Origin: Escherichia phage vB_EcoM-RPN187
Direction: 5' to 3' (one strand)
DNA length: 64,000 nucleotides
Sequence record: OL770074.2
Shown here piece after piece: positions 7,662 to 35,183 of the stretch. A program made the position numbers and the translations under genes. Every line of letters begins with the position of its first letter. Position 1 is the first letter of the stretch. Below the pieces are notes generated by a model. The model searched no databases. It worked only from the letters and a program-made list of their open reading frames with translations, and had not been told where the DNA came from.

Positions 7662-7669
7662 AAAAAAAA

Positions 7670-7685: not shown

Positions 7686-7692
7686 TTTTTCG

Positions 7693-8810: not shown

Positions 8811-9062
8811 CTAGAACTTGATTTCTATCCAGTGCCCATCACGCTGGTCGTGATTAATTTTGTACTGAAAGCCGTTATCACGGAACCACTGCCCGATTTG
8901 CTCGGTGATAGTTAAATCATTCTTTGACGGATAGTATGTAAATTGTGTCTGGCCTTTGTCAGCGGCTTTCTCTGCCATCACAGAGAAGTTAGTAATAAAA
9001 TCTTTCAACAAATTGGCTTTAGTGGCCAGGGCCCTTTCTCTTAATTCCTGTGCAAAACTCAT
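8811..9062 (-). CDS. hypothetical protein
   Basis: 83-aa ORF, start-overlaps upstream ORF stop. Confidence 0.5.
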   Translation of the reverse strand: MSFAQELRERALATKANLLKDFITNFSVMAEKAADKGQTQFTYYPSKNDLTITEQIGQWFRDNGFQYKINHDQRDGHWIEIKF

Positions 9063-9259
9063 TTCTTCACCTTTTTGTTAATAAAACGTTTACGGTATAC
9101 AACTTTTTCTTTTGCTTTAAACTTTGACCGAGCTGTCTCGGCTTTAGTCCATAGTAATCCAACTTCTTTAGGTTGTAAACCGATTTTTTGAGCAATTTCT
9201 ACGAATGAAAATCCCGCCTCATGTAATGTATAAACTTCAACTTCAGCTCTCATAATCAA
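9059..9259 (-). CDS. small helix-turn-helix protein (hypothetical)
   Basis: 66-aa ORF; segment LHEAGFSFVEIAQKIGLQPKEVGLLW resembles an HTH (sigma region-4/LuxR-like); basic C-terminus. Confidence 0.45.
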   Translation of the reverse strand: MIMRAEVEVYTLHEAGFSFVEIAQKIGLQPKEVGLLWTKAETARSKFKAKEKVVYRKRFINKKVKK

Positions 9260-9334
9260 TCCCGTATTATTTGGTTTGTGCCATTATACACATCAATCTC
9301 AAGATGTGTTTTGTATGCTTTAAAAACGAAGAAA

Positions 9335-9348
9335 GGGGCCGAAGCCCC
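9335..9348 (-). terminator. UUCG-tetraloop hairpin after hoc
   Basis: GGGGC-CGAAG-CCCC on plus gives UUCG loop on the minus transcript, followed by T-rich tract. Confidence 0.6.
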
Positions 9349-9354
9349 TTACGA

Positions 9355-10206: not shown

Positions 10207-10215
10207 AAGTTATCC

Positions 10216-10884
10216 TTATTTTAATGTTACGAAAGAAGAATTGCGTGTTTCACGAATTAGAACTGATCCGTCGCGATTAATGTAATAAATTAAGCTAAAT
10301 AAAGTTTGGTGAGCAGAAGCATGCACAAAACTAGTTGGGCGAGATTTCCAATCTGGGGTTTCGGCTATCCATTGATAAATCCACCAAGGAACAGTAACAT
10401 ATCCTGGGCCTTTGCCTAATTTAATGAGTGTAGGACTAAAATTTTCAGGCAGAACAAATTTTACTTCTTTATTTACATCTGCCTCAGGCTCTTTTTCAGA
10501 TTCAACAACCTGAGTAATTGCTTCTTCGAATTTATCATGGTCGAATTCTTTTTCTTGTTCGACAACTTCTAATACTTCAACTTGTTCTGTTGGAGAATCA
10601 AACAACAGAATAGCTTCTTCTTTAACTTCTTCGTTGGTGAAATTAACACCGTCCACATCATCTGCGGCAGTAATTAAATCGGTGATAGATAATCCATCAG
10701 TTTCAGGTAATGGTTCATCAGCCAGTGCTTTAAGAGCTTCTTCGATATCAATAACAATATTATCGAATGATTTTGTTTTCTTAACACTAATCCCAAATTG
10801 TTCTGCGTATTCAAACAGTTTAGCTTTGGCTTCCTTTTTATCAGAAAGAGCACGTAACTCTTCAATATAGTCTTTATCGATCAT
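10216..10884 (-). CDS. inh: Inh, inhibitor of prohead protease
   Basis: 222-aa ORF (T4 Inh about 226 aa); position between hoc and uvsW. Confidence 0.7.
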   Translation of the reverse strand: MIDKDYIEELRALSDKKEAKAKLFEYAEQFGISVKKTKSFDNIVIDIEEALKALADEPLPETDGLSITDLITAADDVDGVNFTNEEVKEEAILLFDSPTEQVEVLEVVEQEKEFDHDKFEEAITQVVESEKEPEADVNKEVKFVLPENFSPTLIKLGKGPGYVTVPWWIYQWIAETPDWKSRPTSFVHASAHQTLFSLIYYINRDGSVLIRETRNSSFVTLK

Positions 10885-10897
10885 GGTATTTCCTCAT

Positions 10898-10905
10898 TAT
10901 AAATA
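10898..10905 (+). promoter_or_regulatory. late promoter TATAAATA for uvsW
   Basis: exact TATAAATA 30 nt upstream of uvsW ATG. Confidence 0.55.
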
Positions 10906-10934
10906 TAACTATATTTATTACATGGTAATTTGAC

Positions 10935-12449
10935 ATGACTGACATTAAAGTACATTTTTATGATTTTAGTCACGTGCGCATTGAATGCGACGAAAGTACG
11001 TTTTACGAACTTCGTGACTTTTTTAGTTTTGAAGCTGACGGGTATAAATTTAACCCAAAATATCGCTATGGGAACTGGGATGGTAGAATTCGACTTTTAG
11101 ATTATAACCGTTTGTTACCATATGGACTTGTAGGACAAATAAAAAAGTTCTGTAATAATATGAGTTATTCTGTATGGATTGACCCTAAAATATTTGAGAC
11201 CGAAGACCTTACCAGGGAAGATTTTGACGCATGGCTTTCTAAACAAGAAATTTATTCGGGCAACTCCAAAATCGAACCACATTGGTATCAAAAAGATGCA
11301 GTATACGAAGGATTAGTTAATCGTCGTCGAATTTTAAACCTTCCGACATCAGCAGGTAAATCACTAATCCAAGCACTTTTAGCTCGATATTATCTAGAGA
11401 ACTATGAAGGTAAAATTCTCATTATCGTCCCTACAACAGCATTGACAACCCAGATGGCTAATGATTTTGTTGATTATCGCTTGTTTAGTCATTCGATGAT
11501 TAAGAAAATTGGCGGTGGTGCTGATAAAGCAGACAGAGCTAAAAACGACGCTCCAATTATTGTTGGCACATGGCAAACAGTAGTTAAGCAGCCTAAAGAA
11601 TGGTTCTCTCAGTTCGGTATGATGATGAATGATGAATGCCACTTAGCAACAGGCAAAAGTATTTCTTCAATCATCTCAGGATTAAATAATTGCATGTTTA
11701 AATTCGGTTTATCTGGCTCATTAAGAGATGGAAAAGCCAATGTAATGCAGTACGTAGGTATGTTCGGCGAAATCTTCCGTCCTGTTAGCACGTCTAAATT
11801 AATGGAAGACGGACAGGTAACTGAGCTTAAGATTAATAGTATTTTCCTTCGTTATCCGGACGAATTCACCGTTAAATTAAAAGGTAAAACATACCAAGAA
11901 GAAGTTAAAATTATTACCGGACTAAAACGACGTACAAAGTGGATTGCTCAACTTTCAGTCAAATTGGCTAAGAAAGACGAGAACGCCTTTGTAATGTTTA
12001 AACACGTTACACACGGTAAAGAAATATTTGAAGCTATTAAAGAGCTTGGATACGAAAAAGTTTATTACGTATCAGGTGAAGTTGATACTGAAACACGTAA
12101 CGCGCTTAAAGTCATGGCAGAAAATGGTAAAGGCATTATTATTGTCGCATCATATGGAGTATTCTCTACTGGTATTTCAGTCAAGAATCTTCATCATGTT
12201 ATTTTTGCCCATGGTGTTAAATCAAAAATTATCGTACTTCAAACCGTAGGTCGCGTGCTTCGTAAGCATGGTTCTAAAGCTGTTGCTACAGTTTGGGATC
12301 TCATCGATGACGCAGGTGTAAAACCTAAATCATTAAATACTAAAAAGAAGTATACTCATCTTAATTACTTGTTAAAACACGGTATTGATCGTATCCAACG
12401 TTACGCTGATGAGAAATTTAACTATGTAATGAAAACAATTAATTTATAA
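10935..12449 (+). CDS. uvsW: UvsW DNA/RNA helicase (SF2)
   Basis: 504-aa ORF; Walker A PTSAGKS, DECH box (MMMNDECHL), SF2 motifs; T4 UvsW 502 aa. Confidence 0.95.
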   Translation: MTDIKVHFYDFSHVRIECDESTFYELRDFFSFEADGYKFNPKYRYGNWDGRIRLLDYNRLLPYGLVGQIKKFCNNMSYSVWIDPKIFETEDLTREDFDAWLSKQEIYSGNSKIEPHWYQKDAVYEGLVNRRRILNLPTSAGKSLIQALLARYYLENYEGKILIIVPTTALTTQMANDFVDYRLFSHSMIKKIGGGADKADRAKNDAPIIVGTWQTVVKQPKEWFSQFGMMMNDECHLATGKSISSIISGLNNCMFKFGLSGSLRDGKANVMQYVGMFGEIFRPVSTSKLMEDGQVTELKINSIFLRYPDEFTVKLKGKTYQEEVKIITGLKRRTKWIAQLSVKLAKKDENAFVMFKHVTHGKEIFEAIKELGYEKVYYVSGEVDTETRNALKVMAENGKGIIIVASYGVFSTGISVKNLHHVIFAHGVKSKIIVLQTVGRVLRKHGSKAVATVWDLIDDAGVKPKSLNTKKKYTHLNYLLKHGIDRIQRYADEKFNYVMKTINL

Positions 12450-12464
12450 GGGCTTCGGCCCTTA
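12449..12464 (+). other. CUUCGG hairpin between uvsW and uvsW.1 (no T-run; RNA structure)
   Basis: AAGGGC-TTCG-GCCCTT overlapping uvsW stop, immediately followed by SD AGGAG of uvsW.1. Confidence 0.5.
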
Positions 12465-12474
12465 GGAGATAAAA

Positions 12475-12705
12475 ATGGTACTTGAATTTAAACAATTTTT
12501 ATACGAAGCATCTATTGACGAATTCATGGGTAAAATTGCTAGTTGTCATACCTTAGAAGGGCTTGAAGAATTGGAAGCTTATTATAAGAAACGTATAAAA
12601 GAAACGAAATTAAAAGATACAGATGATATTTCTGTCAGGGATGCCTTAGCAGGTAAGCGTGCCGAACTTGAAGGCGACGATGATGATGAGGAAGAAGACT
12701 TCTAA
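12475..12705 (+). CDS. uvsW.1: UvsW.1 small acidic protein
   Basis: 76-aa ORF with SD AGGAG; acidic DDDDEEEDF tail; T4 UvsW.1 is 76 aa. Confidence 0.8.
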   Translation: MVLEFKQFLYEASIDEFMGKIASCHTLEGLEELEAYYKKRIKETKLKDTDDISVRDALAGKRAELEGDDDDEEEDF

Positions 12706-12761
12706 TTAAAAAAGGCCCGACCTTTTTGGAAGGGCCAAAACCATAGGCAAAAAAGGTAACA

Positions 12762-12929
12762 CTATAGTAAAAGTTGGGTTTCGTTCAATTGCTCTTCTGA
12801 ACTTTCTGAAACCGGCATTTGTTGGACATAATTATAACAAGGCCCAGGATGTGCTGGTCCTTTGTCTGTTTCAACAACCAATGCAGAATCGATTGGAGTT
12901 TTACAGACAACACAAATCTTATCTGACAT
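12762..12929 (-). CDS. small Cys-containing hypothetical protein (uvsY upstream-region ORF)
   Basis: 55-aa ORF below the ORF-track threshold; strong SD GGAGG 6 nt upstream; CxxC...C spacing; minus-strand TATAAATA 30 nt upstream. Confidence 0.4.
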   Translation of the reverse strand: MSDKICVVCKTPIDSALVVETDKGPAHPGPCYNYVQQMPVSESSEEQLNETQLLL

Positions 12930-12958
12930 GATTGCCTCCTAAGTTGAAATTACATATC

Positions 12959-12966
12959 TATTTATA
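12959..12966 (-). promoter_or_regulatory. late promoter (TATAAATA on minus strand)
   Basis: plus tatttata = minus TATAAATA, 30 nt upstream of ORF 12762..12929. Confidence 0.4.
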
Positions 12967-13186
12967 CAACTCGCATGCACATATCGATACCCATATCTTT
13001 TGTATAAAAATACTCGTCGATGTACCCAGCAAACTTCCCTTTAATATAAAGGACGTCTTCGCCACAAGGGTGGTCTGCCAGGATACGAATATCCTGGCGT
13101 CGTAGACGATACTTTTCCATTAAGAATTTAATTTCAGTTTCAAATTCTTCATCATTATTAAAGGCATCTTCAATTGAATAGCGCAT
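12962..13186 (-). CDS. hypothetical protein (T4 uvsY.-1/-2 position)
   Basis: 74-aa ORF start-overlapping uvsY stop. Confidence 0.5.
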   Translation of the reverse strand: MRYSIEDAFNNDEEFETEIKFLMEKYRLRRQDIRILADHPCGEDVLYIKGKFAGYIDEYFYTKDMGIDMCMRVV

Positions 13187-13599
13187 TATTGCCCCGCTTC
13201 AAATTCTCGCATATCCTGGATATGTTTAAGTGCAAAACTACGAGACTTAACTGCGTCAAGTGCACCACTACAGAACTCAAGTAAAATTCCCCAGTATTGT
13301 AAAGTAGTCTCTATTTTAAGCACATCTTTATCTGCAGCCAGGACAGTTTTCATTTCAGACTTCTCGTATCGGTCCATACTGAATTCATCACCGTCACCTC
13401 GTCCCGAGTAGTAGTCTAATCTTGCTTTTAGAGCAGTTTTCTTCTGAGTCTCTATACGCAACATTTCTTTACGAATAAATGAGTGCTTACGTAGCCATTT
13501 GCTGTATAACTTAACATTATTCGCCGTCTCATATTGCAACTTTGTCATATCAATAGCTAAGTCTGCGTCTAACTCTTCCTGTAAATCTTCCAGCTTCAT
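13186..13599 (-). CDS. uvsY: UvsY recombination mediator protein
   Basis: 137 aa from MKLEDLQEEL; near-identical to recalled T4 UvsY; the 164-aa track ORF is an upstream in-frame extension. Confidence 0.9.
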   Translation of the reverse strand: MKLEDLQEELDADLAIDMTKLQYETANNVKLYSKWLRKHSFIRKEMLRIETQKKTALKARLDYYSGRGDGDEFSMDRYEKSEMKTVLAADKDVLKIETTLQYWGILLEFCSGALDAVKSRSFALKHIQDMREFEAGQ

Positions 13600-13654
13600 A
13601 ATGTTCTCTCTTTTAACTAATAATCTCCCGGCTGTATCGGAAGGACCTAAAACC

Positions 13655-13680
13655 ATTATACACAGGTTGCCTTGAAGCAT
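13655..13680 (-). promoter_or_regulatory. MotA-dependent middle promoter for uvsY
   Basis: minus strand ATGCTTCA (MotA box) - 12 nt - TATAAT; overlaps gene 25 stop. Confidence 0.55.
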
Positions 13681-14078
13681 TACACTCTATTGCTTGACGC
13701 TAACTGAAGTTTAATTTGTTCAATATCGTCAGGGTTGTCTACGACCGAAAATCTAATCTCTACTATAACCGTATAGTCATCATATACTGGCGTTACACTC
13801 ACAGAAAGTTTGTCGATGCGTGGCTCATAGTTACGAACAGCTGCCTGGATATTACGCTCAATCGTATCGGCTGTAAGTGGTGTCATGTTCTCGAAAAGTT
13901 CGTCGACCAAATCGCATCCAAATTCAGGGTCGAAGGGGCGTGAGCCTTTTCTAGTTGTCACTATGCCAAGAAGACTATTTTTAATAGAACGAAGTCCTAC
14001 AGAACGAGCAACGTCCTTGTTCCAATCCATACGCATTTCTGGGTCGATATCTGAATAAAGTTTATTGATATTAGACAT
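13680..14078 (-). CDS. 25: baseplate wedge protein gp25
   Basis: 132-aa ORF (T4 gp25 132 aa); synteny. Confidence 0.9.
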   Translation of the reverse strand: MSNINKLYSDIDPEMRMDWNKDVARSVGLRSIKNSLLGIVTTRKGSRPFDPEFGCDLVDELFENMTPLTADTIERNIQAAVRNYEPRIDKLSVSVTPVYDDYTVIVEIRFSVVDNPDDIEQIKLQLASSNRV

Positions 14079-14704
14079 TATAGTAACTCAAAGAATTCTT
14101 TGAGGCCTCGTATTGTGTGAACGTGTGACGCCCCACATTTGGGACATTTAATAGGGGTTGCCAGATAAATTGATGGCGATACTAAAAGATTTTTAATATT
14201 GATCATGTCATCTTCTGTTATAAGGCCGTAAAGGTCGTTTATTTCTGCTTCAGTTAAATCTTCAACAGGGATGGACTCTCCATTGACAAAAACAGCCTCA
14301 ATACATGAAGCAATCATTAATGCGATATTTTTATCGTCAAATAATTTAGGTTGACGGAACTTAATTTTAATACCACTGAACGAATACCAGGGATCGGCCT
14401 GTTCATCTAATCGAGTGTGCAATAAATTCATATAGACTTGAAATGAATGCCCACAGGAACAATTCCAGGTGTGTTCTTGATTCACTTCACCTAATGAATG
14501 TGCCCACAGATTTACCAACAATAACTCGGCTTCTTGTTTAGTCAAGTTTTTAGCGTTAGAGCAATTAGTGATAATATTGTTCACTGCTGATTCAATAGTA
14601 CCTGTAGCCCGCGCACCTATGAGTCCTAGATATTCTTTTAAAGTAAAGGCTCTACAATTCACTTCTTTATCGCCTAAACGTACGGTAAACGTATATTTGT
14701 ACAT
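14078..14704 (-). CDS. 26: baseplate hub protein gp26
   Basis: 208-aa ORF (T4 gp26 208 aa); start-overlaps gene 25. Confidence 0.85.
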   Translation of the reverse strand: MYKYTFTVRLGDKEVNCRAFTLKEYLGLIGARATGTIESAVNNIITNCSNAKNLTKQEAELLLVNLWAHSLGEVNQEHTWNCSCGHSFQVYMNLLHTRLDEQADPWYSFSGIKIKFRQPKLFDDKNIALMIASCIEAVFVNGESIPVEDLTEAEINDLYGLITEDDMINIKNLLVSPSIYLATPIKCPKCGASHVHTIRGLKEFFELL

Positions 14705-14721
14705 GTTAACTCCTTTATTGT

Positions 14722-14733
14722 GTATTTATAAAT
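14722..14733. promoter_or_regulatory. overlapping divergent late promoters (TATAAATA on both strands) for 26-25 and 51-27-28-29-48-54
   Basis: plus tatttataaata contains TATAAATA (14726-14733, +) and its reverse complement (14722-14729, -). Confidence 0.6.
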
Positions 14734-14751
14734 AATAGAAAAGGAGTAATT

Positions 14752-15504
14752 ATGGCTAATATAATTCGTTGTAAATTACCGGATGGTGTTCATCGTTTTA
14801 AGCCGTTCACTGTGGCGGATTATAGAGACTTTTTACTAGTTAGAAATGATATCGAACATCGTTCGCCACAAGAACAAAAAGAAATAATTGCCGATCTGAT
14901 TGATGATTATTTTGGCGAGTACCCTAAAACATGGCAACCATTTATATTCCTGCAAGTTTTTGCAGGCTCTATAGGCAAAACAAAAGTTCCCGTTATTTTC
15001 ACTTGCCCTAAATGCTCTAAAGAAAAAACTGCACCATTTGAAATATATCAAAAAGAACTAGTCGAACCTGAACTTGATGTTGCTGGTATAAAAATACGTT
15101 TTTCTTTCCCTGAAAAGTTTTATGACAATAAAGCATTAATGATAAGTGAAAACATAAAAGAAATATATTATAATGATGAATGGTACCCATGGAATGATTT
15201 GACTGAAGAGAACCAAATCCAAGTAATAGAAGCAATAGACATTGACTCGCTCGAGAAGGTTATTGCTTCTATGAACCCTATTAATTTGACCCTTAGATTA
15301 GGTTGTTGTGAACGTCATGTTAAAACATATACTGATATCTTAGAGGTTTTTAAATTGTTAGTTAACCCTGATGAGATTTTTACATTCTATCAGATAAACC
15401 ATTCACTAGTAAAGAGTCAATACACATTGGATTCTATTATGCAAATGATTCCTGTTGAACGTGGTATTGCTTTAACATTAGTAGAAAAGGACCATAAAAA
15501 ATGA
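14752..15504 (+). CDS. 51: baseplate hub assembly catalyst gp51
   Basis: 250-aa ORF (T4 gp51 249 aa); divergent from gene 26 as in T4. Confidence 0.85.
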
Positions 15505-16673
15505 CAGTATTCCAACGTCCAGGATATCCTAACTTAAGCGTTAAATTATATCAAGATTATTCGGCTTGGCAAGAAAATAGATACGTTGAACTCGCGGCAA
15601 CAATAACAACTTTAACCATGCGAGATTCGCTATATGGAAGAAATGAAGGGATTCTTCAATTTTATGACACTAAAAACATCCACACTAAAATGGATGGTAG
15701 ACAGATAGTCCAAATCTCTGTTTCAAATTCAAACACACCTCTCCAAGTTAGAACTCGAATTTATGGATGTAGACATTATTCTGTGTCTGTGGACTCAAAA
15801 GGTGACAATATTATTGCAATTGAGCTTGGAACAATACATTCTATAGAGAACCTTAAATTTGGGCGTCCATTCTTCTCAGACGCAGGAGAATCTATACGTG
15901 AAATGTTAGGTGTCATATATAAAGACCGTACGTTAATTACTCCGCCAATAAACACTATTAATGCTTATGTTCCTGATATTCCTTGGACAAGCACATTTGA
16001 TGATTATTTGGCATATGTCAGAGAATTAGGACTTGCTACAGCGAGTGATAAGTTCGTATTCGTATGGCAAGATATTTTAGGCGTAAACATGATTGACTAC
16101 GATACTCTTATTGGTCAGGAAGGCATTAAGATGGTTGTAGGTGAGCCAAATACTGTAGGTCAGTATATTCAAGAGCTTGAGTATCCATTAGTATGGGATT
16201 TCACCTGGATGACTAAAGCTAACCAATTTACAAGAGACCCTATTAAAAACGCCACGATATTCGCTCATTCATTTTTAGATACATCTATTCCGGTTATTGT
16301 TACAGGTGATGGTGATAATGCTATTCTTGTGTCAAGATCAGGTGGATATTCCGAAATGACCTATCGTAATGGATTTGAAGAAGCAAGTCGTCTTCAGACA
16401 ATGGCCCAATATGACGGATATGCTAAATGCACTACTACAGGTAATTTTAACATAACGCCTGCTACTAAAATTATATTTGTTGACCAAAAGAACCAATTCA
16501 AATCCGAATTTTACGTGGATGAAGTTATTCATGAGTTATCAAATAACAACTCGCAAACTCATCTGTACATGTTTACCAACTCAATGGTGTTAGAACCTGT
16601 TAACCCAGTTAAGGTTAAAAATGAACTTAAATCTGATTCTACCTCTAAAGAAAATAATTCTACCACAGTCTAA
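15501..16673 (+). CDS. 27: baseplate hub protein gp27
   Basis: 390-aa ORF (T4 gp27 391 aa); ATGA overlap with gene 51. Confidence 0.9.
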
Positions 16674-17154
16674 TAAAAAGGTAATGATTCCCAAACTAGG
16701 GCTCAAACATTATAATCTTTTAAAGGACGTTAAAGGTCCTGACGAAAACATGAAAATCTTAGCTGATTCTATTTGTAAAAATATGAGTCCCGCAGATTTT
16801 GATTTTGCATGTCTACACATATTGGAATTTAATAACAAACTTAAGTCTGAAGTTGAAAAAGATGGATTCACTTATAAACTAGATGACGTCTATGTATGCC
16901 AACGAACAGAATTCCAATTTCAAGGTAATACTTTTTATTTTAGACCCCCAGGCAAATTTGAACAATTCGCTACAATCAGTGAAATGCTATCAAATTGCTT
17001 AATAAAAGTTAACGACGAAGAGAAAGAAATTTCTTTCCTTGAGATGCCTGCTTTTGTAATCAAATGGGCAGAAGACCTTTCGACAACTATTGCTATTCCA
17101 GGCCCTAATGGTCCTATTAAGGGTATAGCAGAAATTATTGGATTGCTTGAATGA
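16621..17154 (+). CDS. 28: baseplate hub distal subunit gp28
   Basis: 177-aa ORF (T4 gp28 177 aa) overlapping gene 27 by 53 nt; alternative start at 16684 possible. Confidence 0.75.
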
Positions 17155-18923
17155 AACCTGAAGAAATGAAATCCATGCGTAGAAATAAGGTCATTGCCGA
17201 TAATAAACCACAAAAAGTAGCTGCAACAGCAGCTACTGATTCATTAGAAGCATTGAATAACATTTCATCAAAACTGGACGATGTCCAAGCCGCGTCTGAA
17301 CTCACATCACAAAGTGTAGAAGATAAAGGCAATGGAATTATTGAATCAATTGGAGACTTAAAGAATTCGACAGATAATACTGCTGAAGGCGCAGAGCTTA
17401 TCGCAGAAGTTATTGAAAAACAAACTGAAGTCACTAAAAGTATAAACGAAGTTTCTAGTGCAATAAGCTCCAAGTTAGACCGATTAGCTACATTATTAGA
17501 GCAAAAATTACAAACATCTACCGCTATTCAAAATACAGGAGGCACCTCTCTTGAAGTAATTGAGAACGCAATACCTGTTAAAGTGGTTGATAACGAAACT
17601 TATGATGAGTTGTTTAAAGCATTACCTACACCTGAAAAGATTGATAATAAGCCAGACGAAGATTTCTTCCCAGCCCCGGTTCAAGAAAGTGCTAATTCTA
17701 CTTCCGATTCTAAAGGTGGAATTAGCTTTAAATTGAGCGATAAAATTGCAATGCTCACCAAAACAGTTCAAGCCGGGTTTAATAAATCAATATCAATTTC
17801 AGACAGAATTGCTGGAATGCTTTTCAAATACACTATAACGGCTGCTATTGAAGCAGCAAAAATGGCCGCACTTATTCTTGGTATTGTTATCGGTATTGAT
17901 TTATTGATAGTCCATTTCAAATATTGGACAGACAAGTTCACTTCTGCCTGGGATTTATTTGATGAAAACTTTACTAAATTCTCCGATGAAGCTAAAGAGT
18001 GGGGTAAATTCTTAAGTGATATATTCACTTCTATTGACTCGATAAAACAATTGTGGGAAGCCGGAGACTGGGGTGGTTTAACCGTTGCTATTGTCAAAGG
18101 TGTAGGAACAGCGTTAATGAACTTAGGTGAACTAATTCAATTAGGAATGGCTAAACTCTCCGCGTCTATATTGCGTGCTATAGGTTTTGGTGATACCGCG
18201 GACGAAATAGAAGGACGTGCTTTGGAAGGATTCCAAGAAACTACTGGGAACAAATTAAAGAAAGAAGACCAAGAGAAAGTCGCTAAATATCAAATGAAGC
18301 GTGACGATGGTGAATTAGGAACCGTTTCTAAAGGTCTTGATATGTTACAACGCGGCAAAACATTTGTTACTAACTGGGTTCGTGGTAATGACAATAAAGA
18401 AGAGTTTAGTACAAGCGATGAACGTGCTGCAGAATCAGCAAAATTAAAAGAGTTACCTGAAGAGGAGCGTAAAGAGGCATATATAAAAGCTAATGAAACT
18501 CGTGCAGCACTGGTTAGATTTGAGGATTATATCGATAAAATCGATATGACTAATCCGGAAAATGCTAAAAACGTCGAGAAGTCTTATGCTGATTTAAGTA
18601 AACTTATTAAAGACCCTGAACTTAATAAAACTCCTGTTGTTAAAAAGGAATTAGATGCTAGATTTGAAAAGCTAAATAATAAAATGGCTGAAGCCAAAAA
18701 GGCCCAGACGACAGTTAAGCCTGAATCTTCGACTAAATCTCCAGAAGCAAAACAAGTTCAGTCAATAGAGAAAGGACGTGCTTCTGAATCTAAACAACAG
18801 CAACCGGTAGCGGCGATTAGTAACACAAATAATGTCGTCAAAAAGAATACCGTAGTCCAGAATATGACCCCTGTAACAAGTACAACGGCTCCTGGAATTT
18901 TCCATGCCACCGGTGTTAATTAA
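17151..18923 (+). CDS. 29: baseplate hub / tail length determinator gp29
   Basis: 590-aa ORF (T4 gp29 590 aa). Confidence 0.85.
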   Translation: MKPEEMKSMRRNKVIADNKPQKVAATAATDSLEALNNISSKLDDVQAASELTSQSVEDKGNGIIESIGDLKNSTDNTAEGAELIAEVIEKQTEVTKSINEVSSAISSKLDRLATLLEQKLQTSTAIQNTGGTSLEVIENAIPVKVVDNETYDELFKALPTPEKIDNKPDEDFFPAPVQESANSTSDSKGGISFKLSDKIAMLTKTVQAGFNKSISISDRIAGMLFKYTITAAIEAAKMAALILGIVIGIDLLIVHFKYWTDKFTSAWDLFDENFTKFSDEAKEWGKFLSDIFTSIDSIKQLWEAGDWGGLTVAIVKGVGTALMNLGELIQLGMAKLSASILRAIGFGDTADEIEGRALEGFQETTGNKLKKEDQEKVAKYQMKRDDGELGTVSKGLDMLQRGKTFVTNWVRGNDNKEEFSTSDERAAESAKLKELPEEERKEAYIKANETRAALVRFEDYIDKIDMTNPENAKNVEKSYADLSKLIKDPELNKTPVVKKELDARFEKLNNKMAEAKKAQTTVKPESSTKSPEAKQVQSIEKGRASESKQQQPVAAISNTNNVVKKNTVVQNMTPVTSTTAPGIFHATGVN

Positions 18924-18931
18924 GGATTATT

Positions 18932-20041
18932 ATGATTAGTGTAAAAGAAATAGTAGTAGATGCAAAGGATTTAAATAAAGCAATCCCAGTCTCAGAAAGT
19001 GCTGGGCAAAGCACTAAAACCGAAACAACTACTAAAACTTATGTTGCTCAATTTCCTACAGGAAGAGCAGCCGGAAATGACTCCACAGGAGACTTCCAGG
19101 TAACAGATCTTTATAAGAATGGATTATTATTTACCGCGTACAATATGTCTGCACGCGATTCAGGATCCCTCAGGAATTTACGTCCGGCATACGCCGGCAC
19201 TTCATCTAACGGTATCATATCAGATTTAACTGATAATGTGAAAGATGCAGTGACTAAATTCTCTAATGGGTTGCTTCCTGCCGGAGCTAATAAACCTACT
19301 ATAAATAAAACTCCTGTTGCTAATATACTTTTGCCACGTTCCAAATCTGACGTTGATACAACTTCACATCGTTTTAATGATATTGGTGATAGCCTTATTA
19401 CTAAAGGTGGAGGTACTGCTACGGGTGTTTTAAGTAACATTGCTTCTACTGCAGTTTTTGGTGCATTAGATTCTATTACTCAAGGGCTTATGGCTGATAA
19501 TAACGAACAGATTTATACGACTTCTCGTAGTATGTACGGCGGTGCTGAGAACCGTACTAAAGTCTTTACATGGGATTTAACTCCACGTTCAACTGAAGAC
19601 CTTATGGCTATTATAAACATTTACCAGTATTTTAACTATTTCTCATATGGTGAGACCGGTAAATCACAGTACGCCCAAGAGATTAAAAGTTATTTAGACG
19701 AATGGTACCGTTCAACGTTTATTGAGCCTATGACGCCTGATGATGCAGTAAAAAATAAGACATTGTTTGAAAAGATTACTGCGTCATTAACAAATGTATT
19801 AGTTGTAAGCAACCCTACAATTTGGATGGTTAAAAACTTTGGTTATACGTCTAAATTTGATGGATTAACTGACGTATTTGGCCCATGTCAAATTCAAAGC
19901 GTACGTTTTGATAAAACTCCAAATGGACAATTTAATGGTCTTGCTGTTGCTCCTAACTTACCGTCAACATTTACGTTAGAGATAACAATGCGAGAAATTA
20001 TTACATTAAACCGTTCTTCACTTTATGCGGGGACTTTCTAA
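18932..20041 (+). CDS. 48: baseplate tail-tube cap gp48
   Basis: 369-aa ORF; synteny 29-48-54. Confidence 0.85.
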   Translation: MISVKEIVVDAKDLNKAIPVSESAGQSTKTETTTKTYVAQFPTGRAAGNDSTGDFQVTDLYKNGLLFTAYNMSARDSGSLRNLRPAYAGTSSNGIISDLTDNVKDAVTKFSNGLLPAGANKPTINKTPVANILLPRSKSDVDTTSHRFNDIGDSLITKGGGTATGVLSNIASTAVFGALDSITQGLMADNNEQIYTTSRSMYGGAENRTKVFTWDLTPRSTEDLMAIINIYQYFNYFSYGETGKSQYAQEIKSYLDEWYRSTFIEPMTPDDAVKNKTLFEKITASLTNVLVVSNPTIWMVKNFGYTSKFDGLTDVFGPCQIQSVRFDKTPNGQFNGLAVAPNLPSTFTLEITMREIITLNRSSLYAGTF

Positions 20042-29425: not shown

Positions 29426-29734
29426 TTACATAAGAAGCAAACGTTCTACCGGAGTGCCATCAACCGAAATTACTTTATCAAGGCGGAAAGAACGCCACTG
29501 ACCTAACTTGGTGTCGAATGCTCGAACTGATTCACGAGGTTCATAACGAACTTCTGTTGCTGGATTGTTATTTTCGTATTTGACTTCAAGTTCATCGCGC
29601 GAAGCAAACATAGTGCGTACCTCGCCGTTAGCCTTTTCAAATACAACACAATGAACGCCTACAGACAGAATAGTTTTAATACGTTCACGAAGAACCATAG
29701 TTTCTTGTTCAGTTAAAATCATATTATTCACCAC
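29426..29734 (-). CDS. hypothetical protein (T4 31.1 position)
   Basis: 102-aa ORF, start-overlaps cd stop. Confidence 0.5.
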   Translation of the reverse strand: MVNNMILTEQETMVLRERIKTILSVGVHCVVFEKANGEVRTMFASRDELEVKYENNNPATEVRYEPRESVRAFDTKLGQWRSFRLDKVISVDGTPVERLLLM

Positions 29735-30305
29735 AAAAGTTTCGGATTTGTTCCCAATTCAGAGAACGAAGATTATTACGAGAGTACTGAATTACTTCAA
29801 TACCGGCTTGTTTTAGAATGTCTGCCCAATTTTCAGGAGATCGATCGTATAATTCTGCGTATACAACCTTTTTAATACCTGACTGCGTAATAGCTTTAGT
29901 GCAATCAGGACACGGAGAAAGCGTCGTATATAACGTAGCACCTTCAATAGAATTACCTTTACGAGCTGCAAACAAAATTGCGTTCAGTTCCGCATGGATT
30001 TCGTTATTAGCAGACCATGCACTATGAGCCGCTCGATGTTCTTTAGCCAAAACAAAATTATCTGCCCGTCCAAATGCCGTAGTGCCTTCTTTATGTCCAG
30101 CAACGATGACCGGACTTGGTTTATTCTTCAACCAACCATTTTCGGATGCATGTTCGCAACAGTTAACGCCACCGGCCGGTGAACCATTATATCCAGTAGA
30201 GATAATGCGCCCATCTTTTTCAATGACGGCACCAACTTTCCATGAACAACATTTTGATTCTTGAGAAATCAAATAAGCAATTTGAAGATATGTGCTAGCT
30301 TTCAT
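29724..30305 (-). CDS. cd: dCMP deaminase
   Basis: 193-aa ORF; zinc-binding HAE (HAELNAI) and PCPDC motifs; T4 Cd 193 aa. Confidence 0.95.
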   Translation of the reverse strand: MKASTYLQIAYLISQESKCCSWKVGAVIEKDGRIISTGYNGSPAGGVNCCEHASENGWLKNKPSPVIVAGHKEGTTAFGRADNFVLAKEHRAAHSAWSANNEIHAELNAILFAARKGNSIEGATLYTTLSPCPDCTKAITQSGIKKVVYAELYDRSPENWADILKQAGIEVIQYSRNNLRSLNWEQIRNFCGE

Positions 30306-31297
30306 TATTGAACCTTATTAATATAAGTTAACAGCTCTTTAGTTTGTTCCCAACTGATGCACGCATCGGTAACGGAAACGCCATAGGACATATTATCAGA
30401 AATTTTTTGATTTCCTTCATGTAGGAATGATTCTATCATAATTCCTTTGACCAAATCATTAGCTGCTAAATTTTTACCAATACCAATTTGATTGCTATAA
30501 CACCCATCAGCGTTTGCATGGCTACAGTCAACCATTACATAATGATTCAGACCTAATGCACTTGCTTTGTTAGAAGCTTCTTGAATATCAGAAGAATGAT
30601 AGTTCGGGCCGTTGGTCCCACCACGCAATACGATATGCGTATTCTGATTACCTTCAGCTTCAACAATGCCTACAGTACCATCGACGTCCATACCCATATA
30701 CCGATGAGGCCAGGCGGCACTATACATCGCGTCTGTAGCTACTTTAATAGAACCATTGGTTGCGTTCTTGAAGCCTACGCACATCGGTAGACCTGAAGCA
30801 ATTTCACGATGTGTCTGACTTTCAGTCGTACGGGCGCCAATAGCAACCCATGAGAAAATACCAGAAAGATACTTAATTGTGAATGGGTCTAATACTTCAG
30901 TTGCTAATGGAAGTCCCATACGTAGAAGTTTACGACACAATGTTCGTGCAACTATAAGACCGTGGTTCATATCAAAACTTCCGTCAAGATATGGATCATT
31001 TACAAGACCTTTCCAACCTACGGTAGTTCGAGGCTTTTCAAAATAAACGCGCATCACTAACAGAACATTAGGAAGACGAGTTTGAAGTTCAGCCAGACGT
31101 TTGCCGTATTCAACAGCAGCAATAGGGTCATGAATTGAACAAGGACCTACAACAATAAGTTTGCGTGGGTCTTCACCGTTCATAATCGAATTAACTTGTT
31201 CGCGATGAGAAGCCACTTGTGATGCGTAAGCTTCCGACAAAGGAATAATCTCAGCCAGTTCTTTTGGAGAAATAAGTTTTCTGATGACAGGTAACAT
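30305..31297 (-). CDS. 3-deoxy-D-arabino-heptulosonate-7-phosphate (DAHP) synthase, class I AroG/AroF-like
   Basis: 330-aa ORF; AroG-like motifs LIVVGPCSIHD, KPRTTVGWKGL, GARTTESQ, DCSHAN, ESFLHEGNQ, TDACI; SD TAAGGA; start overlaps cd stop. Confidence 0.85.
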   Translation of the reverse strand: MLPVIRKLISPKELAEIIPLSEAYASQVASHREQVNSIMNGEDPRKLIVVGPCSIHDPIAAVEYGKRLAELQTRLPNVLLVMRVYFEKPRTTVGWKGLVNDPYLDGSFDMNHGLIVARTLCRKLLRMGLPLATEVLDPFTIKYLSGIFSWVAIGARTTESQTHREIASGLPMCVGFKNATNGSIKVATDAMYSAAWPHRYMGMDVDGTVGIVEAEGNQNTHIVLRGGTNGPNYHSSDIQEASNKASALGLNHYVMVDCSHANADGCYSNQIGIGKNLAANDLVKGIMIESFLHEGNQKISDNMSYGVSVTDACISWEQTKELLTYINKVQ

Positions 31298-31417
31298 AAC
31301 AATCCTTAGGAGATATAAACAGATTCTGATTCAACAATACCTTTAACCGGATTAGACAGGCTAAGTTAGTAGTGCTCAGATTTATGACCATTCTCGATAG
31401 TAATTAGATAACTCTCA

Positions 31418-31654
31418 TTATAGTGTTCCATATACTCGAGTTGCTTCAACGAGACCATCACTGCCTAATTTAAGATTAGTAATTTGGTCACCATCTTTAG
31501 GATTAACGATTATGAGAAAAGAACGAGGAGATTCTTGAATAACTCGTAATGTTGCATCCTGGAAACGTTCAGACACTTTATTGATGAGTGTTTGAGCGAA
31601 TTCTTTTACTTTAATCTGAAATTCGTGTACTGTAATTGGATTTTCACTTAGCAT
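31418..31654 (-). CDS. hypothetical protein
   Basis: 78-aa ORF with early promoter upstream. Confidence 0.5.
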   Translation of the reverse strand: MLSENPITVHEFQIKVKEFAQTLINKVSERFQDATLRVIQESPRSFLIIVNPKDGDQITNLKLGSDGLVEATRVYGTL

Positions 31655-31673: not shown

Positions 31674-31702
31674 GGTAGAGTTATAGTATCACAACTCCAC
31701 CA
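31674..31702 (-). promoter_or_regulatory. T4 early-type promoter
   Basis: minus GTTTAC-N17-TACTAT. Confidence 0.5.
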
Positions 31703-31714
31703 TGTTGTAAACCA

Positions 31715-31997: not shown

Positions 31998-32222
31998 TCA
32001 GTGCACAGTATTTACTTTAACTCGAACAACAAATCGCTCGGTTGGTTCACCTACAGGAACAAACTCTACATGATATTCACCTTTGTAACGAGTATTCAGA
32101 TCATTACGAATTCCTGCGAGTTTGTTGATTAATGTAGGACTCATATTAAGTCCCACTAGTTTACGAAGCATTTTGTATGCTTCATCTTCGATTTCATGAT
32201 GTTTATCGTACATAGTTTTCAT
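31998..32222 (-). CDS. hypothetical protein
   Basis: 74-aa ORF. Confidence 0.5.
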   Translation of the reverse strand: MKTMYDKHHEIEDEAYKMLRKLVGLNMSPTLINKLAGIRNDLNTRYKGEYHVEFVPVGEPTERFVVRVKVNTVH

Positions 32223-32393
32223 TTAACCATTCAATTGCCTGGTCGACGTTATCAAATATACTGCCGTCCAACCATTCTTCATGTTCATAGTCCAGCACAT
32301 CAATACCGAACCGTCCATTTACTAAAGGCCATACTACAAACAAATATTCTTTATGCTGTTCGATGGCCTCAATCACTTCATATAATCGTTTCA

Positions 32394-32394
<1 letters not shown>
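32203..32394 (-). CDS. hypothetical protein
   Basis: 63-aa ORF, acidic; ATGA overlap with pseT start. Confidence 0.45.
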
Positions 32395-33480
<1,086 letters not shown>

Positions 33481-33481
<1 letters not shown>

Positions 33482-33780
33482 TATTTTATTCCTAAGAAAA
33501 TTTCAAGAATACGAATGTTATGCTCGCGCCGGTCTTTATTAATTTCAGCAACGTTTTTATTAATTGACGTACTTCTAACGTTTGAAGAAATAAATTTAAT
33601 CATATGACTTTTGAGTTGTTGCAAATCCAACCCTTTTTCTTTAGCAGCTTTACGAAGAGCTTTACCTGCTTCATCTAGTGCCTTTGCTGCATCTTTGTCA
33701 TAATTGCCAAGTGACATTCCACGGCAGATATCAATATACTCATCAGACCGTTTGATGTAATTCTCTAGTAATGTTTTCAT
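33481..33780 (-). CDS. hypothetical protein
   Basis: 99-aa ORF, basic. Confidence 0.5.
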
Positions 33781-33808
33781 TTAGATTTCCTCAATTATCC
33801 ATAGGAGC

Positions 33809-33838
33809 ATTATACTCTGCTCCTGAGAGTTTGTAAAC
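33809..33838 (-). promoter_or_regulatory. T4 early-type promoter, -10 TATAAT inside inverted repeat
   Basis: minus GTTTAC-N18-TATAAT; IR ggagca/tgctcc flanks -10; near-identical to promoter at 61410-61439. Confidence 0.55.
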
Positions 33839-34062
33839 TATTTTACTAAAGATTCAATATACTCGTGAAGAGCTTTAGTCGCTACTGCCCACTTATTCTG
33901 ATATTCATTTTTCAGATTAGCACGAGACTGAACTAACAATCGGTCATTAGTCGGAGGCAAAGATTCTAATCGTTGAATCTGGCGCCCATAAATCATAGCC
34001 GCCATTTCAGATTCATAGATAAGCCCTTTAATGTATTCATGCTGTTCTTTAGTCATTGGCAT
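33838..34062 (-). CDS. hypothetical protein
   Basis: 74-aa ORF. Confidence 0.45.
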   Translation of the reverse strand: MPMTKEQHEYIKGLIYESEMAAMIYGRQIQRLESLPPTNDRLLVQSRANLKNEYQNKWAVATKALHEYIESLVK

Positions 34063-34343
34063 TTTTCCTCTTTTAAACCACTACGATAATAACATATCAT
34101 AGTCTTCTGGTCATGTACGTATCTTTTTACGTCGTTTAACCAGATACGAAATTCTTGAGAGTCTTCAAATGGCATTCCAACCCACGGATTACCATCAATA
34201 ACCTTTACTTGCCATTTCTGGTTATATTCAACAATAGATTCAGGCCATGGCGGATGTAAAGTTTCTTTAGGGCTTAAGGGCACATCCTGGGCACATCCGG
34301 CTAAAATGCCAATAGATAATACAACTGCAGTTAATTTAATCAT
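34053..34343 (-). CDS. predicted small lipoprotein
   Basis: 96-aa ORF; signal peptide with lipobox MIKLTAVVLSIGILAG-C. Confidence 0.5.
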   Translation of the reverse strand: MIKLTAVVLSIGILAGCAQDVPLSPKETLHPPWPESIVEYNQKWQVKVIDGNPWVGMPFEDSQEFRIWLNDVKRYVHDQKTMICYYRSGLKEEKCQ

Positions 34344-34696
34344 TCTGAGAGCTTCCTGAGGTCTTCTGCAAAGGAATCGAAGGACCTGTTGATTTGTTTT
34401 TCGACCAATCCTGGTTTACTTGCCACCACGTTCTTCTTCTTCGAATCCTTACGGAGCTTTTCATTTTCGGCCTTAAGTTGGTCAACTAAAACACGGTTCT
34501 TATAAGTCATTTCTTCGATTGACTGATATTGAACCTTGAAGTCGTCTAATACTTTAGCATTGTTTTTAGCAGTCTCTTTAACAGAAGCTAATTCATTATT
34601 CAACGAATCAACTTTGTTGTTTAAGACAACTATTGTTAGCGTAGAAACTAGAGCAAAAGCTGCTACCATAGCATAAATCGGATTTACTTTAAGCAT
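34340..34696 (-). CDS. predicted single-pass membrane protein with coiled-coil
   Basis: 118-aa ORF; N-terminal hydrophobic helix (AMVAAFALVSTLTIVVL) then charged helical region. Confidence 0.5.
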   Translation of the reverse strand: MLKVNPIYAMVAAFALVSTLTIVVLNNKVDSLNNELASVKETAKNNAKVLDDFKVQYQSIEEMTYKNRVLVDQLKAENEKLRKDSKKKNVVASKPGLVEKQINRSFDSFAEDLRKLSE

Positions 34697-35183
34697 GTTT
34701 TAATAATCTCAATGATTTCATCTCGGGATAATCCATTGATAAGAACGGTTTTCGGACCATCACACTGGATTTTGTACGATTCAAACAATACACACAACTC
34801 TTCTGCTGTATGATACGGACTTGAAATTCCGAGGCGATTGAATTTGTCGGTAAGAGGGTCGCAAATAATGTAGAATTTTATACCTGAGATATGTACGTTT
34901 GGTTGACTAATATTAATGAACACATTAGCGTCATATTTAGTCAAATTGTTTTGAAGAAATTCTACCATGGCATTAACTGCTTCCGGCATCGCTTCACGTT
35001 TCTCTTCGGTGTAACGTGTTGAATATTCCTTTTGCTTTAACTTCTTTTTAGCATTTTTCGCTAGAGTAGTACGAAGGTCCGTAAGATAACCAACTGCACG
35101 GCCTTTCTTAAAGACTCGGATTCCATCTGTAGAATCACCAAATGCTGCCACAACCATATCGTTAGTAATCAATTGCATATTCA
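34684..35183 (-). CDS. alc: Alc-like protein (host transcription termination on dC-DNA), tentative
   Basis: 166 aa from MNMQLITN (SD GAGGAG); T4 Alc is 167 aa and sits immediately downstream of rnlA. Confidence 0.5.

Follow-up and report, generated by a model that had tools for sequence, protein, structure and literature searches.

Host-type enzymes are known from lytic phages, the cyanophage talC and pentose-phosphate genes being expressed together with genes of nucleotide metabolism. The gene described here differs from these talC-type genes in that it encodes the entry enzyme of the shikimate pathway, a DAHP synthase (DAHPS), and is carried by phages of Enterobacterales hosts. It has family, fold and chemistry in common with the E. 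coli enzymes AroF (Tyr-sensitive; 6AGM/6AGL), AroG and AroH. With respect to feedback inhibition, the Phe site is formed by the N-terminal extension together with a β-hairpin (PMC4735112), the main chain of the inhibitor is contacted by Q151 and S180 (Q152 and S181 in AroF), and the AroG variants P150L, S180F and F209A/S are feedback-resistant (PMC9529685). A naturally insensitive enzyme is PhzC (PaeDAH7PS-PA1901), a type IIB DAHP synthase of phenazine clusters, which is without aromatic allosteric sites, does not respond to Trp, Tyr or Phe, and boosts shikimate flux (PMC6435475). The logic is the same as that predicted below for the phage enzyme, namely an extra deregulated enzyme for a special purpose; PhzC is, however, a bacterial type II protein of ~400 aa, in which regulation has been lost by omission of helices α2a/α2b.

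The phage gene is already known, being annotated in public phage records, usually as phospho-2-dehydro-3-deoxyheptonate aldolase, and mentioned in the literature, and we do not present it as a discovery. It appears in one preprint among the auxiliary metabolic genes, with its function given as unknown, and one phage genome paper links the DAHPS domain loosely to LPS synthesis (PMC8022965); in the BASEL paper and the RB69 arabinosylation paper the gene is unmentioned. A search of the full-text literature yielded these two brief mentions only, and for none of the phage DAHP synthases did it turn up an enzyme assay, transcripts, proteome data or a knockout. The homologues of ST0, JS09, HX01, Bas47, PEi20/26, CHI14, Marfa, PM2, EcS1 and PSTCR6 are the same gene, in the same slot by cd and with the same signature residues. 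That of ST0 is 99.7% identical and those of other genera are 56-77% identical, and nothing of substance sets the copy analyzed here apart from these annotated phage homologues. What is added here is the invariance of the catalytic residues, the clade-specific changes in the inhibitor pocket, and the missing N-terminal residues that close this pocket.

Locus and expression signals

The window analyzed was a stretch of 64,000 nucleotides from Escherichia phage vB_EcoM-RPN187 (OL770074.2). An initial annotation, made from the sequence alone, had placed a DAHP synthase ORF of 330 aa at 30305..31297 without giving a strand. The ORF is real and lies on the minus strand, with an ATG start and with the stop codon counted in the coordinates. 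A Shine-Dalgarno-like AAGGA could be read from the sequence 5 nt upstream of the ATG (31303..31307, minus strand). Downstream, the gene adjoins cd (dCMP deaminase; 29724..30305, minus strand), the ATG of which shares 1 nt with the DAHPS stop codon (TAATG, at 30305), and this overlap suggests translational coupling. Upstream, a 120-nt spacer (31298..31417, minus strand) leads to a cd.2 homologue of 78 aa which is immediately upstream and in the same direction (31418..31654, minus strand), and the interval is limited by pseT (polynucleotide kinase/phosphatase; 32394..33293, minus strand), which starts with GTG in the window and with ATG in ST0. Four small ORFs separate the DAHP synthase from pseT in the window. 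The gene was therefore correctly placed by the initial annotation in the cd-pseT interval, where T4 has only the small ORFs cd.1 to cd.5, and the slot which it occupies is that of cd.1. Its neighbourhood consists of phage genes (cd, gene 31, rIII, pseT, alc and rnlA), and as a host-type enzyme in a bona fide phage genome with phage flanks it can be classed as an auxiliary metabolic gene. An ORF of 41 codons annotated in the spacer of ST0, Bas47 and AV116 is probably not a gene, because it has an in-frame TAA at 31366-31368 in the window.

A candidate sigma-70-like promoter (TTTACA-17-TACTAT with extended TG; 31683..31711, minus strand) was identified by its match to the consensus and by positional analogy, the site being the equivalent of the gap between cd.2 and cd.3 in which T4 has an annotated early promoter. 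It is the likely source of a cd.2-DAHPS-cd transcript. No T4 late promoter (TATAAATA) was found near the DAHP synthase gene on its strand, and no MotA box (TGCTT) within the 120-nt spacer upstream of it. We infer that the phage enzyme is expressed early: a sigma-70-type early promoter would drive its pre-replicative transcription, jointly with cd.2 and cd, and its translation would be coupled to that of cd.

Distribution and age of the gene

Near-identical DAHPS genes were found in 139 Mosigvirus-type records and relatives in 212 phage records, counting matches with at least 80% coverage; the gene was full length in 212/212. Across the gene, the window was 99.6% identical to complete Mosigvirus genomes and differed from ST0 by 4 nt and 1 aa. 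The arrangement pseT-(small ORFs)-DAHPS-(0-2 ORFs)-cd recurs in Mosigvirus, Marfavirus, Bragavirus, Kanagawavirus, Winklervirus and a metagenomic T4-like contig. In the tree, the phage sequences formed a monophyletic clade, with an overall identity of only 55-77%, which was not nested in enterobacterial AroF; relative to host aroF the phage gene is a separate deep branch and no recent copy. The Aeromonas phage HJ05 and faecal-contig DAHP synthases are separate lineages and were left out of the clade statistics. In each phage the gene and its neighbours have the same GC content. Between genera dN/dS was 0.15-0.26, like that of cd and pseT, which shows purifying selection; within Mosigvirus it was noisy and higher (0.1-0.6, with one value of 2.1), there being only 4-14 differences, too small a number to be informative. 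Judging from these comparisons, these phages have carried the gene for a long time and it forms a phage-specific clade, not a recent arrival, because it is syntenic in at least six lineages, has a neighbour-like GC content and is not nested in host AroF. On the same grounds, the initial description of the gene as inserted holds as regards its placement between cd and pseT and fails as regards a recent event. A sequence from a bacterial contig (P0112), the nearest non-phage sequence in the tree and one which shares the substitution S180P, was considered as donor and was unconvincing in view of its long N-terminus and long branch.

In Mosigvirus RB69 a 1.1-kb segment comprising the spacer and DAHPS (30309..31408) is missing, homology ending at 30308 and restarting at 31409. 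This indel is bracketed by two copies of a 9-nt direct repeat, with the left copy CTTTCATTA at 30299..30307 (TAATGAAAG on the coding strand, at the stop/start overlap) and the right copy CTCTCATTA at 31412..31420, 8/9 identical to the left. RB69 seems to have lost the gene secondarily, by deletion. Among cd-carrying Mosigvirus-type records ~11/150 were apparently without DAHPS, and because these records and RB69 are without the gene, it is dispensable under some conditions.

Identity and catalytic site

The ORF was confirmed as a type Iα DAHP synthase. It matched Pfam DAHP_synth_1 (PF00793) with E = 3e-74 (249.8 bits, cut-off 25.5) and the NCBIfam aroFGH equivalog TIGR00034 with 425.9 bits (cut-off 173.2), and it passed the cut-off of the PRK12755/NF009395 subfamily model (453.4 bits, cut-off 343). 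The cut-offs of the AroG equivalog NF006723 (362.2 bits, cut-off 568) and of the AroH subfamily NF009396 (384 bits, cut-off 463) were not reached, and no KdsA model was among the NCBIfam matches. The best solved-structure match was E. coli AroF 6AGM (E = 1e-104). The protein search proposed with the initial annotation, against AroG, AroF and AroH and against phage proteomes, gave identities of 51% to E. coli AroF, 48% to AroG and 44% to AroH, and the phage records already described. An AF2 model (pLDDT 92.1, pTM 0.92) had the (β/α)8 barrel with N-terminal extension and internal β-hairpin (strands 198-203 and 209-214), and Foldseek comparison of this model with the PDB gave a TM of 0.95-0.96 and an rmsd of 1.5 Å to E. 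coli and N. meningitidis type Iα DAHPS. The N-terminal helices are kept in the model and the first ~8-9 residues are gone. In comparison with AroF, AroG and AroH, the N-terminus of the phage enzyme is 8-10 residues shorter and there are small loop deletions (AroG 86, 289-293, 315-316 and 346-350). Sequence profile, predicted fold and residues agree with the earlier reading of the ORF as an intact class I (AroF/G/H-type) DAHP synthase.

The five motifs quoted in support of that reading are all present (VVGPCSIHD, EKPRTTVGWKG, IGARTTESQTHRE, MVDCSHANADG and FLHEGNQKI). The Glu of HEGNQ had been taken for a metal ligand in error, since it is E294 (AroG E307) and the true ligand is E289 in MIESFL. 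The metal ligands are C53, H260, E289 and D311 (AroG C61, H268, E302 and D326), and this Cys-His-Glu-Asp site was invariant in 25/25 phage and 98/98 bacterial sequences. The earlier motif list had no entry for the fourth ligand, D311 (in VTDACI). The PEP/E4P residues R83, K88, P89, R90, T91, G154, A155, R156, K177 and R225 are conserved, K88-T91 being the KPRT motif, and metal ligands and PEP/E4P residues alike are identical to those of AroF, AroG and AroH. Altogether 14 of 14 catalytic, metal, PEP and E4P residues (in AroG numbering C61, H268, E302, D326, R92, K97, P98, R99, T100, G163, A164, R165, K186 and R234) were invariant across 25 phage-clade sequences. A loss of catalytic residues on alignment, named in the initial annotation as an argument against an active enzyme, was thus seen in none of the 25. 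With these residues the product would be a catalytically competent, metal-dependent type Iα enzyme, and we infer that it is active in forming DAHP from PEP and erythrose-4-phosphate.

The feedback-inhibitor pocket

An unbiased scan covered the positions whose conservation reached 90% or more in the phage group as well as in the bacterial group (n = 105). Phage and bacteria differed at 6 of the 105 (AroG P150I, Q151K, D155G, S180P, F209Y and T223A), and 5 of these 6 were inside the literature-defined inhibitor site (Fisher p = 7.6e-6), T223 being the one beyond the five known inhibitor-site positions. The remodelled positions of the window protein are I141, K142, G146, P171, Y200 and A214; in place of an intact aromatic-amino-acid pocket (AroG P150, Q151, S180, F209 and the N-terminal cap) it has I141, K142, P171 and Y200. 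None of the 25 phage sequences has the N-terminal 8-9 residues of AroG, among which are D6 and D7 (N7 and N8 in AroF); in the window protein AroG residues 2-9 are missing, and the AroG P19 column is preceded by 8-12 residues in phage versus a median of 21 in bacteria. Both D6 and D7 of AroG reportedly have a role in inhibitor binding (work of Shumilin et al. from 2002). Inspection of the feedback-inhibitor residues, which had also been proposed at the outset, thus found the five inhibitor-site positions and T223 replaced relative to AroF, AroG and AroH, and the cap gone. Feedback-resistant variants of AroG and AroF (AroG P150L, S180F, F209A/S and D146N; Q151 variants) share positions with the phage substitutions P150I, S180P, F209Y and Q151K. 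The laboratory variants carry a single substitution in a full-length host enzyme, whereas the phage enzyme has six fixed changes and an N-terminal trim, and its resistance is predicted.

Parts of the pocket are kept, namely L170, V212, P138 and a G202 like that of AroF. This retained hydrophobic part could still allow some ligand binding, and the Lys replacing AroG Q151 may have kept the ability to bind a carboxylate. Within the phage clade the rebuilt segments (LATEVLDPFTIKYL and HREIASGLPM) vary less than the remainder of the protein (entropy 0.20 vs 0.99), a pattern which fits a site still constrained, for instance as a dimer interface or by a new ligand, better than one simply abandoned. 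In a profile search the signature IKGPYA was found in none of the best 150 representatives of 1.84 billion proteins, among which PQDSFT dominates; the top two matches of this search were non-phage tandem DAHPS fusions of 730-799 aa.

In the mechanism we propose, the Tyr/Phe/Trp pocket would have been rebuilt (Pro-Gln to Ile-Lys, Ser to Pro, Phe to Tyr, Asp to Gly and Thr to Ala) and its capping N-terminal residues lost while the active site remained unchanged. From the rebuilt pocket and the lost cap, insensitivity to Tyr, Phe and Trp is predicted, and the phage enzyme would escape aromatic-amino-acid feedback. Escape from host feedback control had been one suggestion of the initial annotation, and it gains support from the fact that the only part of the protein to have changed systematically in the phage clade is this pocket. 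Our main reading, to which we give a probability of about 0.6, is that of an early-expressed, active DAHPS which would be insensitive to Tyr, Phe and Trp and would feed the host shikimate pathway.

The rebuilt pocket may instead be a new allosteric site, at which a different effector (a metabolite specific to the phage or related to nucleotides, or else a protein partner) would tie shikimate flux to the phage programme. The changed segments are nearly invariant despite the 55-77% identity of the clade, a basic Lys stands in place of the Gln that binds the ligand carboxylate, and the gene lies within a nucleotide-metabolism cluster with predicted co-transcription. There is, however, no candidate ligand, and conservation of this kind would also be expected of residues that had taken over from the lost N-terminus in stabilising the tight-dimer interface (PMC4735112), and we consider a new site possible but on balance unlikely. 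Just as tentative is the broader proposal that the pocket was rebuilt a single time and stayed fixed while the T4-like phages of enterobacteria radiated, the clade being a natural variant which would have gained a positive role (a non-aromatic effector or partner tying shikimate or E4P flux to the nucleotide and DNA-modification programme), and not a mere loss of feedback.

It is doubtful that the enzyme is an ordinary AroF-like DAHPS, Tyr-sensitive and still regulated, which adds dosage after host expression is shut off. Such an enzyme would suit the closest solved match (the Tyr-sensitive AroF), the PRK12755 cut-off passed, the Gly typical of AroF at the selectivity position (AroG S211), and the retention of L179, V221 and the AroF P148 equivalent, but Q151 and S180, the holders of the inhibitor main chain, are replaced in 25/25 phage sequences, the known feedback-resistance sites P150 and F209 are also replaced, and the N-terminal cap is missing.

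Pathway context and role

In ST0 no other shikimate genes are annotated over 1-167000 of 170496 bp. The phage DAHPS would drive carbon into the host's own AroB to AroC steps, which are absent from the phage, and this flux would persist in amino-acid-rich conditions, where the host DAHP synthases are repressed and inhibited. Candidates for the downstream product that matters are aromatic amino acids, which would go into phage protein, and folate made from chorismate, which would serve the neighbouring td/frd/cd nucleotide enzymes.

A drain on substrate has also been considered, in which irreversible removal of E4P (and PEP) would pull transketolase towards pentose phosphates, for nucleotides and for the arabinose of the hmC-DNA of Mosigvirus. 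The same phages have near the DNA polymerase an arabinose-5-phosphate isomerase module proposed for ara-hmC synthesis (PMC6024577), and the isomerase also occurs in DAHPS-bearing Mosigvirus, Winklervirus, Kanagawavirus and Enterobacter phages. The argument is nevertheless purely stoichiometric, and the distributions of the two genes disagree: the names of ~25 Klebsiella and 7 Proteus phage records with DAHPS are absent among the isomerase matches listed (at most 3 each), and in RB69 and 57 Acinetobacter phage records the isomerase is present and this DAHPS missing. We regard such a drain as improbable. A strict link between DAHPS and arabinosyl-hmC was rejected, given that the isomerase distribution overlaps only partly and that RB69 is a counter-example.

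KDO8P synthase (KdsA) has its own substrate motif in place of KPRT. The phage protein has the DAHPS-type KPRT with all E4P/PEP residues invariant, scores as an aroFGH equivalog with KdsA not among its matches, and is missing from RB69, which makes ara-hmC without a DAHPS gene. A changed, KDO8P-synthase-like substrate (arabinose-5-phosphate or another sugar phosphate, giving a precursor for DNA or surface modification) is very improbable against this evidence, even though PF00793 is common to DAHPS and KDO8PS and the domain has been loosely linked to LPS in the one phage genome paper (PMC8022965). Least probable of all is an inactive remnant or moonlighting scaffold, a suggestion of the initial annotation to which the lack of the gene in RB69 would be suited, but with which the full-length ORF in every one of the 212 records, the invariance of all fourteen catalytic residues, a dN/dS well under 1 between genera and a confident barrel model disagree.

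If the main reading of an early, feedback-insensitive DAHP synthase is true, the T4-like phages of gut Enterobacterales hold a naturally deregulated shikimate gate, and the gene is a rare coliphage auxiliary metabolic gene with a clear and testable regulatory logic, for which RB69 without the gene and most other Mosigvirus genomes with it form a natural presence/absence pair. Biotechnology would gain an evolution-tested, ready-made feedback-resistant DAHP synthase. For the phages themselves, it would mean that chorismate products (aromatic amino acids, and folate for the td/frd/hm-dCMP machinery) can limit yield once the host closes the pathway.

Identity and setting of the phage DAHP synthase

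The ORF at 30305..31297 on the minus strand (DAHPS) starts with ATG and encodes 330 amino acids, as the ORF listing of the window confirmed. Residues 36-323 match Pfam DAHP_synth_1 (E = 3e-74), and the protein scored above the curated cut-offs of NCBIfam TIGR00034, the aroFGH equivalog (425.9 against 173.2), and of PRK12755 (453.4 against 343), and under the cut-offs of both the AroG-specific and the AroH-specific NCBIfam models. The closest solved structure is the E. coli Tyr-sensitive AroF (6AGM, 1e-104). An AlphaFold2 model built from 54 sequences (pLDDT 92.1, pTM 0.92) resembled the E. coli and N. meningitidis type Iα enzymes with a TM of 0.95-0.96 and an rmsd of 1.5 Å. Profile matches, AroF match, predicted fold and residue alignment thus agree on the class I AroF/G/H-type identity proposed in the initial annotation; the observation of an intact DAHP synthase ORF is confirmed and its interpretation supported. 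Every hallmark motif listed there is present, although the metal-binding Glu had been wrongly assigned to HEGNQ: alignment places it at E289 in MIESFL (AroG E302).

The gene lies, as had been stated, in the cd-pseT interval, where every gene is on the minus strand: pseT (32394..33293) is followed by four small ORFs, a 120-nt spacer, DAHPS and the adjoining cd (29724..30305). The DAHPS stop and cd start have one base in common (TAATG), and AAGGA is found 5 nt upstream of the DAHPS ATG. In T4 this slot is filled by cd.1. Some 10 kb upstream are nrdA, nrdB, td and frd, which share the orientation of DAHPS. Since a sigma-70-like site (TTTACA-17-TACTAT with TG, 31711..31683) occupies the gap corresponding to the T4 cd.2/cd.3 gap, where an early promoter is annotated, and no late promoter TATAAATA was found near DAHPS on the minus strand, DAHPS is likely to be expressed early together with cd.

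Across the whole window the late-promoter motif occurred 16 times against 7.1 expected, a count reached in 0 of 100 shuffles, with 11 of the 16 on the plus strand at 600-19300, the structural-gene part. A terminator-like hairpin (13-bp stem and T run) at 31566-31598, within the cd.2 homologue but on the plus strand, opposite to every gene in the region, is probably a chance match (2 found versus 2.4 expected). Phages ST0, Bas47 and AV116 have an annotated 41-codon ORF between cd.2 and DAHPS; at the same position in the window (31306-31431) it is interrupted by a CAA to TAA change (stop at 31366-31368). Between strains the 120-nt spacer has 3-5 differences in its first half, whereas the five strains compared share one sequence over the 70 nt directly upstream of the DAHPS ATG. 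The pseT start codon (33291-33293) is GTG in the window and ATG in ST0, and pseT is the most diverged of the three proteins between these phages (97.3% identity, versus 99.7% for DAHPS and 100% for cd). No tRNA genes were found in the 64-kb window.

Catalytic residues and inhibitor pocket

The window protein and 24 phage relatives (together, the phage clade) were aligned with 95 homologues from bacteria and with the three E. coli isozymes AroF, AroG and AroH. No loss of catalytic residues was seen: all 14 AroG metal-, PEP- or E4P-binding residues are invariant in the 25 phage sequences. At the inhibitor site the phage clade differs from bacteria as a block. AroG Q151 is Lys in 24/25 phage sequences (Gln in 97/98 bacteria), S180 is Pro in 25/25 (Ser in 96/98 bacteria), P150 is Ile in 24/25 and F209 is Tyr in 25/25, and N-terminal residues including AroG D6/D7 (AroF N7/N8) are missing throughout the clade. 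As a guard against cherry-picking, an unbiased scan considered all positions at least 90% conserved within both groups. Only six of 105 eligible positions differed (AroG 150, 151, 155, 180, 209 and 223), five of them among the nine eligible positions of the literature-defined allosteric set (Fisher p = 7.6e-6). AroG P150L, S180F and F209A/S are feedback-resistant, Q151 and S180 (AroF Q152/S181) contact the main chain of the inhibitor, and D155 forms a stabilising salt bridge (PMC9529685). The phage signature IKGPYA was absent from the 150 best 50%-identity representatives in a profile search of 1.84 billion proteins, among which PQDSFT predominates. Inspection of the feedback-inhibitor residues, as the initial annotation had proposed, thus revealed a rebuilt pocket, and these clade-wide changes favour its suggestion that the enzyme may escape host feedback control.

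Aeromonas phage HJ05, which is not T4-like, encodes a 387-aa DAHP synthase of a separate, distant lineage (L011 2899-4062; 38% identity; annotated hypothetical) with intact catalytic residues and the changes Ser180 to Pro, Gln151 to His and Pro150 to Ala, which may represent convergent loss of the feedback site. Two unusual proteins of the representative library, P0121 (799 aa) and P0122 (730 aa), are tandem double-DAHPS fusions unrelated to the phage; both copies in P0122 have degraded catalytic motifs (GPVSAHD or GPEAIHD versus GPCSIHD) and no KPRT.

Distribution and evolutionary history

The window belongs to a Mosigvirus-type T4-like phage, and its gene is 99.6% identical to that of Escherichia phage ST0/JS09-type genomes. 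Of the 145 phage records with a megablast match, 139 contain the full-length gene at ≥95% identity; tblastn matched 212 records, each with a query coverage of 80% or more. With cd present at ≥90% identity in 150 records versus 139 with DAHPS, roughly nine in ten Mosigvirus-type records carry the gene. It is usually annotated as phospho-2-dehydro-3-deoxyheptonate aldolase, DAHP synthase or aroF, and the DAHPS domain is mentioned in the phiC120 genome paper (PMC8022965); the gene itself is therefore of low novelty. Literature searches found no functional study of a phage DAHP synthase.

Phage sequences (319-343 aa) came from Mosigvirus, Kanagawavirus, Winklervirus, Marfavirus/Klebsiella phages, EcS1, Bragavirus, Providencia and Shigella phages and metagenomic contigs. 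In a neighbour-joining tree they formed one clade outside, and not nested within, enterobacterial AroF, about equally distant from many bacterial enzymes (50-54% identity). The order pseT-(small ORFs)-DAHPS-(0-2 ORFs)-cd is kept in five annotated genomes of different genera and one metagenomic T4-like contig. GC content of DAHPS equals that of cd and pseT in each phage compared (0.407, 0.405 and 0.404 in the window), and its inter-genus amino-acid divergence follows theirs. Between genera dN/dS (NG86) was 0.15-0.26, with dS close to saturation. Synteny, matched GC, parallel divergence and lack of nesting in AroF all argue against recent capture, and the comparisons point to an old, vertically inherited gene under selection. 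A bacterial DAHPS, P0112 (JGI metagenome contig L014 8001-9083; neighbours UvrC, DctPQM and ABC transporters), branches beside the phage clade, shares S180P, has Gly at the Q151 position and retains a long N-terminus; it may represent a naturally deregulated bacterial enzyme, or its placement may be a long-branch artefact.

DAHPS is absent from the type Mosigvirus, RB69. Window-RB69 homology ends at 30308 and starts again at 31409, so that exactly the spacer and DAHPS are missing (30309-31408, 1.1 kb; RB69 locus L010 6243-6255). Outgroup genera carry the gene in this slot, so a loss by deletion on the RB69 branch is the more parsimonious explanation. A 9-nt direct repeat, TAATGA(A/G)AG, flanks the missing segment (30299-30307 and 31412-31420); both copies are stop/start overlaps and the RB69 breakpoints fall within the repeat, which suggests a repeat-mediated loss. 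RB69 is a natural null strain.

Proposed role

On the simplest reading, DAHPS would be catalytically active and its aromatic-amino-acid switch disabled. Within the phage clade the rebuilt segments show stronger conservation (entropy 0.20) than the remainder of the protein (0.99), so the pocket appears constrained rather than abandoned, and would either support the dimer interface or bind something new. Such conservation would suit a new effector site, which we consider possible though unlikely. Continued AroF-like regulation would fit the AroF-type Gly and the portion of the hydrophobic pocket that the enzyme retains, but is likewise improbable. It is doubtful that the enzyme acts as an E4P sink feeding pentose phosphates and an arabinosyl-hmC pathway: Mosigvirus does carry an arabinose-5-phosphate isomerase module, but the two features are distributed differently, with DAHPS alone in Klebsiella and Proteus phages and the module, without window-type DAHPS, in RB69 and Acinetobacter phages. 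An altered substrate is very improbable given the intact KPRT motif and E4P residues, and the inactive scaffold entertained in the initial annotation is least credible in view of sequence conservation.

At 32154-35042 of ST0 (NC_041990.1, L017), a region outside the window, DNA polymerase is adjoined by an arabinose-5-phosphate isomerase, a 561-aa protein of unknown function and a 'phosphoheptose isomerase', which together form a candidate UDP-arabinose module for arabinosyl-hmC DNA. Phage records with a homologue of the arabinose-5-phosphate isomerase number 275, of which 57 are from Acinetobacter phages.

DAHPS would pass its product to the host AroB-AroC enzymes, since no other shikimate gene is annotated in ST0 (1-167000 of 170496 bp). 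The downstream product that matters could be aromatic amino acids or, judging by the genes nearby and by T4 biology in general, folate made from chorismate, which the neighbouring thymidylate, hm-dCMP and DHFR enzymes would use. What these data add is a prediction that is specific, backed by statistics and easy to test: the phage clade would represent a naturally occurring variant of type Iα DAHP synthase with an altered allosteric pocket. Such a deregulated entry enzyme would be most useful in amino-acid-rich habitats, where the host isozymes are repressed and inhibited.
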